DNA from: a virus
Lineage: Duplodnaviria; Heunggongvirae; Uroviricota; Caudoviricetes
Strand: one strand, 5' to 3'
IMG/VR virus record: IMGVR_UViG_2667527608_000007
Length of the DNA stretch: 9,003 nt
The position numbers and the translations under genes are program-made. Shown piece by piece: positions 2,550 to 7,159 of the stretch. The stretch's first letter is position 1. The number at the start of each line of letters is the position of its first letter. The notes beneath the pieces were generated by a model. The model ran no database searches. It was not told the origin of the DNA and saw only the letters and a list, made by a program, of their open reading frames with translations.

Positions 2550-2958
2550 GCACATCCGCATGGCGATGAATGCCTGGGCATACCCTGATGGTGAGAAAGT
2601 TCCTGCAGCTGAAATAGCCCGGACTTATTTCGAACTGGGGATGACGTTCCCTGAACTGTACGACGACAGCCATCCGGAAGCCCTGGCCCGTAATACCCAG
2701 AAAATTTTCCGTTGGCTGGATAAAGACACCCCTGATGCTGTTGAAAAAATGCAGGCTCTGTTACCGGCGATCGAAAAGGCGATGCCGCCTTTGCTGGTGG
2801 CCCGTATGCGCAGCCACAGTTCTGAATATTACCGTGAGATCGTCGAACGGAGGGATCGGCTGGTGAAGGATGTCGATGATTTTGTTGCGTCAGCGGTTGT
2901 TTTGTATGACCAGATGAATCGCGGCGGCCCGGCAGGGAATGCTGTGGTGATGCACTAA
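2533..2958 (+). CDS. ydaT: YdaT-like protein (141 aa), partner of the Cro-like gene; CII-like regulator role is an inference
   Basis: AAGAGG upstream of ATG 2533. Size, position and sequence resemble Rac YdaT. Co-directional with and overlapping the Cro-like gene. Confidence 0.6.
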   Translation: MKIKHEHIRMAMNAWAYPDGEKVPAAEIARTYFELGMTFPELYDDSHPEALARNTQKIFRWLDKDTPDAVEKMQALLPAIEKAMPPLLVARMRSHSSEYYREIVERRDRLVKDVDDFVASAVVLYDQMNRGGPAGNAVVMH

Positions 2959-2980
2959 AAGCACGGTGTTCGGGGGTTTT

Positions 2981-3943
2981 ATGAGCAGCAAGCTTCATGG
3001 TCTTGTCTGGGAAGGGTGCGCCTTCACCGGCATGATCTTATCCAGGGTGGCGGTTATGGCCCGTCTTGCAGACTACAGCAATGACGAGGGCGTGTCATGG
3101 CCTGCCATTGAAACTATCCGGCGTCAGATCGGTGCAAGAAGTGAATCCACAGTGAAATCGGCTATTGCAGAACTGGCGAAAGAGGGCTGGCTGACGAAGG
3201 AAGAGCGTAAGGTCGGTGGGCGTAATGTAAGCAATATCTATCGGCTTAATGTGGAAAAACTCGAAGCAGCTGCGGCGGCGGCGCGTGAGTCATATAAACC
3301 GAAAAGAAAAATTAGCCCGGCAAAAAATGACCCGTTAACAGTTGACCCGTCAAATATTGACCCCTCAACGGTTGACCCGTCAAATTTTGATGGATCAACT
3401 GTTGATAAAAAACTGCCGATTAGGGGGGCGATGATTGACCCCGATCCGTCAGTATTAAAACCTGATCCGTCAGATAAAAGATCTTCTTGTCCGGACGCTT
3501 CGCAACCGGACCCGCAGACGGCTGAACAGGATTTTTTAACCCGACACCCTGACGCGGTTGTGTTCAGTGCGAAAAAACGCCAGTGGGGAAGTCAGGAAGA
3601 TTTGGTGTGCGCACAGTGGATCTGGGGACGAATCGTGAGTCTTTACGAGCAGGCGGCCAGCGATGATGGCGAGATCACTAGACCGAAAGAACCCAACTGG
3701 ACAGCATGGGCCAATGACGTTCGCACAATGCGGATGCTGGATGGCAGAACTCACAGACAAATTTGTGAAATGTTTGGGCGTCTCCAGCGGGATTCGTTCT
3801 GGGTAAAAAACATCATGAGTCCGGCAAAACTCCGGGAAAAATGGGATGAACTGGTTATCCGCCTGGGGCGTTCGCCTGCGCAGCGTTGCGTGAATCACAT
3901 TTCTGAACCGGACACTGAAATACCGCCGGGATTCAGGGGGTGA
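2981..3943 (+). CDS. Lambda-O-like replication initiator (320 aa from ATG 2981): winged-helix N-terminal domain, repetitive linker, C-terminal domain
   Basis: N-terminal HTH/winged-helix region (ARLADYSNDEGVSWPAIETIRRQIGARSESTVKSAIAELAKEGWL). The linker DPLTVDPSNIDPSTVDPSNFDGSTVD is encoded by the tandem 15-bp iterons. Lies immediately upstream of the DnaC-like loader. The ORF track's 2966 start is a GTG extension. Confidence 0.7.
   Translation: MSSKLHGLVWEGCAFTGMILSRVAVMARLADYSNDEGVSWPAIETIRRQIGARSESTVKSAIAELAKEGWLTKEERKVGGRNVSNIYRLNVEKLEAAAAAARESYKPKRKISPAKNDPLTVDPSNIDPSTVDPSNFDGSTVDKKLPIRGAMIDPDPSVLKPDPSDKRSSCPDASQPDPQTAEQDFLTRHPDAVVFSAKKRQWGSQEDLVCAQWIWGRIVSLYEQAASDDGEITRPKEPNWTAWANDVRTMRMLDGRTHRQICEMFGRLQRDSFWVKNIMSPAKLREKWDELVIRLGRSPAQRCVNHISEPDTEIPPGFRG
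3328..3417. repeat. Tandem 15-bp iterons (about 6 copies, consensus TTGACCCGTCAAnnn), putative prophage origin of replication inside the initiator gene
   Basis: Copies start at 3328 (ATGACCCGTTAACAG), 3343 (TTGACCCGTCAAATA), 3358 (TTGACCCCTCAACGG), 3373 (TTGACCCGTCAAATT), 3388 (TTGATGGATCAACTG) and 3403 (TTGATAAAAAACTGC). Degenerate GAYCCGTCAG copies follow at about 3436-3475. Each core TGACCCGTCA is internally near-palindromic. Confidence 0.7.
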
Positions 3944-3949
3944 CGTGTC

Positions 3950-4690
3950 ATGAAAAACATTGCGGCAGTTGGGGTTCTTGAACGTATTCGCAGACTTGCA
4001 CCACAGGGGGCGGTTCCACCGTACCGGACGGTGGAGGAGTGGCGGGAATGGCAACTTGCTGAAGGACGAAAACGCAGCGAGGAGATTAACCGCCTGAATC
4101 ATCAGGTGCGGGTTGAAAAAATCCTGAACCGTGCGGGCATCCAGCCGCTTCACAGGAAGTGCTCATTCGGGAACTACCGGGTGCAGAACGACGGTCAGCG
4201 CCATGCTCTGAGCCAGGCGAAATCCATTGCCGATGAATTGATGACCGGATGTACAAACTTCGTGTTCAGCGGTAAACCTGGTACCGGTAAAAATCACCTG
4301 GCAGCAGCGATTGGCAATCGGCTGATGGCGAAGGGGAGAAGCGTGATTATCGTCACCGTGTCCGATGTCATGAGCGTGTTGCATGACGGCTACGACAACG
4401 GCCAGTCCGGGGAAAAATTTTTACAGGAGCTTTGTGGAGTTGACCTTCTGGTCCTTGATGAAATTGGCATGCAGCGGGATACGCGCAACGAGCAGGTCAC
4501 GCTGAACCAGATAGTCGACCGCAGAACGGCTTCGATGCGTAGTGTCGGAATGCTGACGAACCTGAATCACGCAGCGATGAGCACACTCCTCGGAGATCGG
4601 GTGATGGACCGTATGACCATGAATGGTGGTCGTTGGGTGAATTTTAACTGGGAGAGCTGGCGGTCAAACGTTGGACGTCAGGGTATGTGA
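3950..4690 (+). CDS. DnaC/IstB-like AAA+ helicase loader (246 aa); YdaV-like
   Basis: Walker A-like GKPGTGKNHLAAAIG and Walker B LLVLDEIG. Start is 7 nt after the initiator stop, with GGGGG upstream. Typical replication-module partner. Confidence 0.85.
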   Translation: MKNIAAVGVLERIRRLAPQGAVPPYRTVEEWREWQLAEGRKRSEEINRLNHQVRVEKILNRAGIQPLHRKCSFGNYRVQNDGQRHALSQAKSIADELMTGCTNFVFSGKPGTGKNHLAAAIGNRLMAKGRSVIIVTVSDVMSVLHDGYDNGQSGEKFLQELCGVDLLVLDEIGMQRDTRNEQVTLNQIVDRRTASMRSVGMLTNLNHAAMSTLLGDRVMDRMTMNGGRWVNFNWESWRSNVGRQGM

Positions 4691-6828: not shown

Positions 6829-6889
6829 TGCTGCGGGTGCTTGAGGCTGTCTGCCTCGGGCATGCCACCGTAAGGCAGACAGAGAAAAG

Positions 6890-6955
6890 CCCCAGTTAAC
6901 ATTACGCGTCCTGCAAGACGCCTAACATTAATCTGAGGCCAATTTCATGCTAGAC
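6890..6955 (-). ncRNA. Putative Sok-like antisense RNA overlapping the mok translation-initiation region (predicted from a promoter only)
   Basis: Minus-strand -35 TTGCCT (6990..6985), 17-bp spacer, -10 TAACCT (6967..6962) would start a transcript antisense to the mok ribosome-binding site (GAGG 6934-6937) and start codon (6947). The 3' end is not defined. Confidence 0.25.
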
Positions 6956-7159
6956 ATATGTAGGTTAGCCTCTTACGCGCCGAAAGGCAAGGAGAAGCAG
7001 GCTATGAAGCAGCAAAAGGCGATGTTAATCGCCCTGATCGTCATCTGTATCACCGTCATAGTGACGGCACTGGTAACGAGGAAAGACCTCTGCGAGGTAC
7101 GAATCCGAACCGGCCAGACGGAGGTCGCTGTCTTCACAGCTTACGAACCTGAGGAGTAA
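6947..7159 (+). CDS. mok: Mok-like reading frame (70 aa), in frame with and containing hok
   Basis: MLDICRLASYAPKGKEKQAMKQQ... closely parallels my recollection of E. coli MokC (MLNTCRVPLTDRKVKEKRAMKQH...), where mok is an in-frame N-terminal extension of hok. GAGG ribosome-binding site 9 nt upstream. Confidence 0.6.
   Translation: MLDICRLASYAPKGKEKQAMKQQKAMLIALIVICITVIVTALVTRKDLCEVRIRTGQTEVAVFTAYEPEE
7004..7159 (+). CDS. hok: Hok/Gef-family type I toxin (51 aa)
   Basis: MKQQKAMLIALIVICITVIVTALVTRKDLCEVRIRTGQTEVAVFTAYEPEE is near-identical to my recollection of HokC/Gef and HokD/RelF. AAGGAG ribosome-binding site at 6988-6993; single TM helix; conserved Cys and the RTGQTEVAVF motif. Confidence 0.9.
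   Translation: MKQQKAMLIALIVICITVIVTALVTRKDLCEVRIRTGQTEVAVFTAYEPEE

Follow-up and report, generated by a model that had tools for sequence, protein, structure and literature searches.

A probable replication origin within the gene for the initiator protein of a Rac-like Escherichia coli prophage of the lambdoid type

In a 9,003-nucleotide stretch of viral DNA (IMG/VR virus record IMGVR_UViG_2667527608_000007; this whole stretch is the window below, and its numbering is used unless another sequence is named), the region 3327-3483 in our opinion probably serves in cis as the replication origin of a lambdoid, Rac-like prophage of Escherichia coli, built like ori-lambda. The region lies in the middle of the gene for a 320-amino-acid replication initiator, WP_000095671.1 (2981..3943, + strand). 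The program-made open reading frame begins at a GTG at 2966 and the RefSeq start is the ATG at 2981, which our coordinates follow. RefSeq names the protein only as 'helix-turn-helix domain-containing protein', and the origin is unannotated. That the initiator binds the repeats described below, and that the region fires as an origin, we infer by analogy with lambda. The lambda-like position, the architecture, the protein's C-terminal domain and a constraint acting on the DNA itself together support this reading.

The 15-bp repeat is real and far above chance. Tandem Repeats Finder reports arrays of period 15 and period 30 at 3307/3316-3384/3405, with the 30-bp periodicity the better of the two (84% vs 71% matches). 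With two mismatches or fewer, TTGACCCGTCAA matches seven times over the two strands, every time within 3327-3398; the chance expectation is 0.81, and seven matches were reached in 0 of 200 shuffles. Self-identity at a lag of 15 is 0.64 over 3327-3416, and its maximum for the whole window, 0.69 at 3316, compares with a window mean of 0.27 (standard deviation 0.06).

An earlier reading made from the letters alone (the sequence-only reading) had counted about six such repeats. The tandem repetition stands, but the count comes down to four good units, a fifth that is degenerate and inverted, and a vestige. The array proper, delimited by Tandem Repeats Finder, the mismatch search and family comparison, occupies 3327..3401, which is nt 347-421 of the initiator gene, and holds five 15-bp units in both orientations. 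Each has a 12-bp core that is a dyad with TTGAC and GTCAA arms, the site form being TTGAC-N2-GTCAA. The good cores are aTGACCCGTtAA at 3327-3338 (unit 1), TTGACCCGTCAA at 3342-3353 and again at 3372-3383 (units 2 and 4), and TTGACCCcTCAA at 3357-3368 (unit 3). Unit 5, with the degenerate core TTGAtggaTCAA at 3387-3398, is inverted, its best match lying on the minus strand (TTGATGGATCAA). The vestigial sixth unit, the A-rich TTGATAAAAAACTGC at 3402..3416 with the in-register core TTGAtaaaaaac, retains TTGA only and falls within the least stable 30-mer of the gene, 3382-3412. With a site every 15 bp, neighbours fall on almost opposite sides of the helix and every second site, 30 bp on, roughly on one side, in keeping with the better match at 30 bp.

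The period is divisible by three, and the array is read in frame as the linker peptide DPLTVDPSNIDPSTVDPSNFDGSTVD, exactly as the sequence-only reading had it. This peptide belongs to a predicted disordered linker, aa 107-176 (3299..3508, + strand), with pLDDT below 50 and no secondary structure in the AlphaFold2 model, and the DNA encoding that linker contains all of the origin elements: the array corresponds to aa 116-141 and the GATC boxes downstream of it to aa 151-166. It could thus be argued that the repeat is selected only as a flexible pentapeptide linker (DPSxV) and that the DNA has no role in cis. We find this hardly credible in view of the relatives of the initiator. We collected seven phage loci and 80 genome loci with N-domains 49-77% identical to that of the window initiator, among them the 'primosomal protein / O protein' of phages SfIV, SfII and SfV, L17 of phiP27 and enterobacterial prophage relatives from Erwinia, Edwardsiella, Morganella, Yersinia, Providencia, Enterobacter and other genera. 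All those of sufficient length carry an array with a period of five amino acids, or 15 bp, directly after the N-domain. Units were picked by the protein alone, as a Ser that returns at five-residue intervals and is preceded, two places before, by an acidic residue; in this way 71 genes of the SfIV-type subfamily yielded 154 distinct 15-mers. This picker missed most units of the window's own subfamily, because Pro replaces Ser in many of them, and there the DNA was read directly.

The synonymous sites of these units are kept. The Ser codon is TCA in 134 of the 154 array units (87%) vs 227 of 1505 Ser codons (15%) outside the linker in the same genes; counted gene by gene, TCA makes up at least 75% within the array in 65/74 and at least 50% outside the linker in 0/74. 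The third base of the first codon, directly before GA, is T in 129/154 units (84%), across codons for S, F, P, A, Y and T, compared with a background of 0.23 for T at third codon positions. Other positions are near-random, with 0.33 bits at the Asp/Glu wobble base and 0.57, 0.52 and 0.28 bits over the middle codon. Conservation therefore tracks the dyad T-GA-N4-TCA-A, not codon positions. The density of TGA-N4-TCA is 20 per kb in the array region vs 0.42 per kb elsewhere in these genes. The peptide, on the contrary, varies, position 3 being P, A, G, T, V or R and position 1 S, F, I, V or Y.

The orientation of the units argues in the same direction. In the window's subfamily (loci L011-L018) the units are TTGACCCCTCAA, read as D-P-S, and its reverse complement TTGAGGGGTCAA, read as E-G-S. 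Across the family, the core pairs occur in both orientations (CCCG 59 and CGGG 11; CCCC 12 and GGGG 7; GGCA 16 and TGCC 10). One DNA site thus encodes different peptides depending on its orientation, and an explanation at the level of the peptide fails. To judge from these codon and orientation patterns, the constraint on the repeats is at the level of the DNA and not of the peptide. The site itself differs somewhat between subfamilies: most SfIV-type relatives have S-D-x-S-K units (TCTGAC...TCAAAA) with the site TCTGACCCGTCAAAA, and the window subfamily has x-D-P-S-N units (TTGAC...GTCAA).

Given the possibility that something other than the initiator acts on these sites, it is of importance that the repeat changes with the initiator. 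When the gene is compared with phage genomes by megablast, only its 3' part matches, from query position 478 or 511, so that the homology breaks at window 3443 or 3476, just past the array or just past the boxes. Between close relatives, an entire 15-bp unit, or an entire 21-bp box unit, has been lost. Both observations would fit a recombination hot spot that makes the mosaic joint at 3443-3476, or the binding of another protein, be it a phage helix-turn-helix protein or a host factor. We regard this as very unlikely. Gain and loss of units is typical of any tandem array, and no host-factor consensus is enriched (DnaA boxes, tried as a candidate, gave 7 matches vs 6.95 expected). Above all, the type of repeat tracks the class of the initiator N-domain across lambda, phage HannyBb, YdaU of the K-12 Rac prophage and the window family. 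The HannyBb initiator has the same C-domain (86.6% DNA identity), an unrelated N-domain and five 23-bp repeats at the same position in the gene; 23 is not a multiple of three, and this repeat therefore cannot be a peptide repeat, which is a further point against selection for a linker peptide only. The HannyBb repeats, CATCGGTTCAAAATG..., stand at 1846-1961 of locus L008 and are followed by an A/T-rich duplicated TACAGAGAATA(C/A)AA. In K-12 Rac, ydaU encodes a DUF1376 N-domain with the same C-terminal tail as the window initiator and contains four 14-bp repeats, AAGCAGATGTTCAA, at gene nt 353-444. Lambda, measured in the same way, has four repeats of about 20 bp at spacings of 20, 24 and 23. 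Each class of N-domain thus comes with a repeat of its own, as expected of a cognate pair of initiator and site.

The HTH_36 N-domain and its array are combined with at least three types of C-domain; most SfIV-type relatives, unlike the window, have a C-domain of the TIGR02220 type. A DnaC-like gene stands next to the initiator gene in only 6/83 genes. In phiP27, L17-L18-L19 comprise the initiator relative followed by genes for a DnaC-like loader and a DnaB-like replicative helicase; this N-domain and array are here part of a third kind of module.

The description of the protein as an O-like initiator was correct. It is a member of phrog_391, 'replication initiation O-like' (PHROGs, 2.2e-115). 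Its N-terminal winged-helix domain, aa 1-105 (2981..3295, + strand), is presumed to bind the origin; Pfam places HTH_36 over aa 25-71 and finds a weak DnaD_N match too. In the AlphaFold2 model, which was built on 33 sequences, this domain comprises four helices, a wing of two strands and one more helix (pLDDT about 70-85), and Foldseek matches it to dimeric winged-helix DNA binders of the MarR/PadR/ArsR type. Foldseek E-values for the whole model are weak (7e-3 or worse), because two domains are joined by a disordered linker, and they served only to confirm the winged-helix class. The C-terminal helical domain, aa 182-300 (3524..3880, + strand), is 39% identical to aa 171-277 of lambda O (BLASTP, E 5e-26); the model is helical over aa 178-295 (pLDDT 70-83) and ends in a floppy tail. 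That tail, aa 301-320 (3881..3940, + strand), resembles the C-terminal ends of host DnaT and of K-12 YdaU.

As the sequence-only reading had supposed, the adjacent gene (3950..4690, + strand) encodes a 246-amino-acid helicase loader of the DnaC/IstB type and not of the lambda P type. It matches NF009043 (PRK12377) with 500.5 bits against a cut-off of 389, and IstB_IS21 at 1.5e-19. Against the DnaC equivalog NF005931 it scores 309.4, under the cut-off of 357, and is therefore a DnaC-like paralogue rather than DnaC itself; it is 79% identical to K-12 YdaV and 49% to E. coli DnaC. Lambdoid modules with DnaC-like loaders are known.

The likeness to lambda, also put forward at the outset, holds in several respects. 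The annotated lambda iterons occupy nt 349-433 of gene O, practically the same part of the gene as the array. In both cases the origin, known or probable, falls midway through the initiator gene, where the linker that joins a DNA-binding N-terminal domain to a recruiting C-terminal domain is encoded (PMC7466680). In both, an A/T-rich stretch, moderate in the window, comes after tandem sites that have dyad symmetry within them, and the C-domains are homologous. The initiator gene belongs to the early rightward operon and comes downstream of cro- and cII-type genes, as for a lambda-type origin. The six-iteron origins of Stx phages are to be listed beside ori-lambda as the closest system. There are differences, however. 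The N-domain is HTH_36 and gives no BLASTP alignment to the N-terminal part of lambda O, although the fold is still a winged helix. The sites are 12 bp long at an in-frame period of 15 bp vs 19 bp at 20-24 bp, they occur in both orientations, there are GATC boxes, the A/T-rich tract is less pronounced and the loader is of the DnaC type, not P.

The region downstream of the array also has an origin-like order of elements. An isolated half-site, TTGACCCC at 3435..3442, which in closer relatives is part of a palindrome, GGGGTCAAtggTTGACCCC, is followed by GATC box 1 (3443..3452), an iteron-like variant with a Dam site, and GATC box 2 (3464-3473). Degenerate GAYCCGTCAG copies had been noted after the array; they are two exact copies of GATCCGTCAG, at 3443 and 3464. 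Such a pair is statistically weak alone, but it is kept among the relatives, where GATCC[GA]TCA boxes occur in 79/83 genes, in two copies in 50 of them, mostly 24 bp apart. The SfIV/phiP27-type group has the same succession of a 15-bp-period TGA-N4-TCA array directly after the N-domain, GATCCGTCA boxes and A/T-rich spacers, and the family consensus aligned on the first box reads GATCCGTCAGTAAAttCAAaacc.GATCCatcAg..aaaaaa.

The moderately AT-rich stretch of the sequence-only reading was likewise found: AT content is 77% at 3382-3412 and 66% at 3452-3483, vs 48% for the initiator gene. The three least stable 30-mers of that gene, 3382-3412, 3285-3315 and 3453-3483, flank or overlap the repeat sites, and all are at or above the 98.9th percentile of the window. 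The low-stability segment 3453..3483, which contains GATC box 2 and the GATC at 3480, is a candidate unwinding element. This promoter-distal A/T-rich tract is moderate. A rise is conserved family-wide, with AT of 62-70% across the 50 bp from the first box vs 48% for the genes. A resemblance to the oriC 13-mer near 3480 was a poor match by eye and was dropped.

These data bear on a further explanation, in which the initiator does bind the sites, but for autoregulation, copy control or incompatibility (by titration, handcuffing or a roadblock), opening and helicase loading taking place elsewhere in the prophage. Iterons of plasmids and of lambda are described as acting in control and exclusion too (PMC3349717 and PMC4488673), and the A/T-rich tract is only moderate. 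On the other hand, no other repeat array or comparable element was found in the 9-kb early region, the order of array, GATC boxes and A/T-rich DNA is that of the lambda origin at the same position in the gene, and the sites are bordered by the gene's three least stable 30-mers. Hence, we consider a purely regulatory role unlikely and prefer to see in 3327-3483 a probable origin.

Several points weigh against that preference. The codon counts are not independent, since units share descent within and across genes, and the positions that serve as internal controls mitigate this only partly. TTGAC vs TCTGAC implies a subtle difference of specificity between two HTH_36 subfamilies. The A/T-rich tract is weaker than that of lambda (z 2.1-2.4 vs 3.3; AT 66-77% vs 81%). 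Half-site centres are 7-8 bp apart and the sites 15 bp apart, tighter than the 19-bp iterons of lambda at 20-24 bp. Finally, we found no paper in the literature on binding or origin activity in this initiator family.

If 3327-3483 is an origin, initiation could proceed as follows. Lifting of the RacR-type repressor would allow rightward transcription that makes the initiator, and dimers of its winged-helix N-domain would fill the dyad sites to form a complex resembling the O-some, by analogy with lambda (PMC7466680). The resulting strain would open the neighbouring A/T-rich DNA at 3382-3412 and/or 3453-3483. The lambda-O-like C-domain and the DnaT-like tail would then bring in host DnaB bound to the phage DnaC-like loader, and once DnaB is loaded theta replication would start. 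The firing may be modulated through the four clustered GATC sites (3393, 3443, 3464 and 3480), by Dam methylation or by SeqA.

As for methylation, among the relatives the density of GATC is 12.8 per kb in the box region vs 2.7 per kb in the rest of the genes. The Asp codons are GAC 181 and GAT 50 in array units, while in box-type units they are GAT 118 and GAC 31; this flip of the wobble base to T points to selection for GATC in the boxes. In YeP1, 716R3 and Flotzy a DNA methyltransferase gene lies within about 1.3 kb downstream of the initiator gene, and the origin boxes keep GATC; only in YeP1 is it annotated as an adenine methylase. The coordinates related to the methyltransferase are 3477-4190 in locus L005, 2981-3790 in L010 and 4179 onward in L007. 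The nearness of such a gene to an initiator with GATC boxes hints at control of the origin by methylation. One might go further and see here a distinct design, with dense dyads of 10-12 bp in either orientation at an in-frame period of 15 bp, Dam-methylatable boxes that bracket the unwinding element so that firing is gated by methylation or SeqA, a DnaT-like tail that docks DnaB-DnaC, and a host dnaT 3' end and dnaC captured jointly from such a phage module. Taken as a whole this is conceivable, but we hold it to be doubtful.

The last part of that scheme comes from a comparison with the host. The dnaT-dnaC operon has the same order as the prophage genes, a protein ending in ...SEPDxxIPPGFRG followed by dnaC. 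The last 20 residues of the initiator, VNHISEPDTEIPPGFRG, are 70% identical to the C-terminal end of DnaT, and a 58-nt match, at 76% identity of the DNA, reaches from the tail past the stop codon into the start of dnaC (window 3881-3961 vs K-12 dnaT-dnaC, locus L174). The matches of the tail, the loader and the junction between them suggest a joint capture of dnaC and the dnaT 3' end from a phage module of this kind. A paper on the domestication of dnaC discusses its phage origin and does not mention dnaT (PMC5109545). Unlike the initiator, DnaT has no winged helix-turn-helix domain, iterons or lambda-O-like domain, and it acts in PriA-dependent restart, not at an origin (PMC13377028).

The other obvious comparison is K-12 Rac itself (racR-ydaS-ydaT-ydaU-ydaV), with which the window shares the layout of immunity region and early operon, the loader (YdaV) and the tail (YdaU). 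Rac has been reported, from experiments, to have an active origin, oriJ (PMC3945230). The N-domain of YdaU is unrelated to that of the window initiator and its gene has 14-bp repeats instead; the module for origin specificity has therefore been swapped between the two. We rejected YdaU as the same initiator, the alignment being confined to a 19-aa tail. The ydaU repeats are at 2472-2563 of locus L002, with spacings of 33, 33 and 12, and their relative position equals that of the lambda iterons. They are candidate iterons of oriJ.

With iteron-plasmid origins of the RepA/pi type the likeness is smaller, as those have iterons of about 17-22 bp in helical phase and adjacent DnaA boxes, in contrast to the 15-bp period and the chance-level DnaA boxes of the window. 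The region is best filed under the kind 'origin inside initiator gene', for the HTH_36/phrog_391 initiator family. We found no description of iterons of this family in the literature, though an earlier in-silico mention may exist. The SfIV genome paper does not mention the origin, and neither a usable description of an origin for SfIV, SfII or SfV nor sequence data for oriJ were found in the literature.

The principle of an origin inside an initiator gene is textbook knowledge, and the conceptual gain is therefore small. What is gained is the placing of an unannotated, probable cis element in a prophage that about 1,500 of 5,426 complete E. coli genomes carry, among them enterohaemorrhagic strains such as O103:H2 12009, and a clean case of selection at the DNA level overriding conservation of the peptide within a coding region. 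Moreover, the motif (TGA-N4-TCA at 15 bp, then GATCCGTCA boxes) could be used for annotation of origins in many enterobacterial prophages.

The window represents the early region of the prophage, with genes in the order racR, YdaS/Cro-like, YdaT/CII-like, initiator, DnaC-like, DUF1627, DUF977, DUF551, hok/sok, DUF968 and others; racR lies at 1625-2101 on the minus strand (RacR equivalog, 246 bits), and the YdaT gene product belongs to phrog_163, CII-like. A 978-bp query around the repeat is 100% identical to many genomes, for example that of O103:H2 strain 12009, in which the prophage adjoins potC; 1,514 of the 5,426 complete genomes have a match over at least 80% of the query. No internal promoter or terminator was found in 2900-4000, and a search of Rfam gave no RNA element in the array region. 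The only two Rfam matches of the window lie elsewhere in the same prophage: the DicF antisense RNA at 379-430 on the minus strand (76.7 bits) and the sok antitoxin RNA at 6835-7009 on the plus strand (114.3 bits), which adjoins hokD.

Two small 'plasmids' carry the replication module. NZ_CP148542.1, a circle of 15,977 bp, contains only that part of a lambdoid prophage which runs from cI to the lysis genes; its N-domain is the same as that of the window, and a DnaC-like gene is present. The record could be an autonomous circle like lambda-dv or an assembly artefact. The second is an e14-like circle, either real or an artefact, and we give no weight to either of them. A large share of the database entries for the initiator protein are marked 'partial', their contigs ending within the gene; the cause may be the presence of several related prophages per genome, which break the assemblies.

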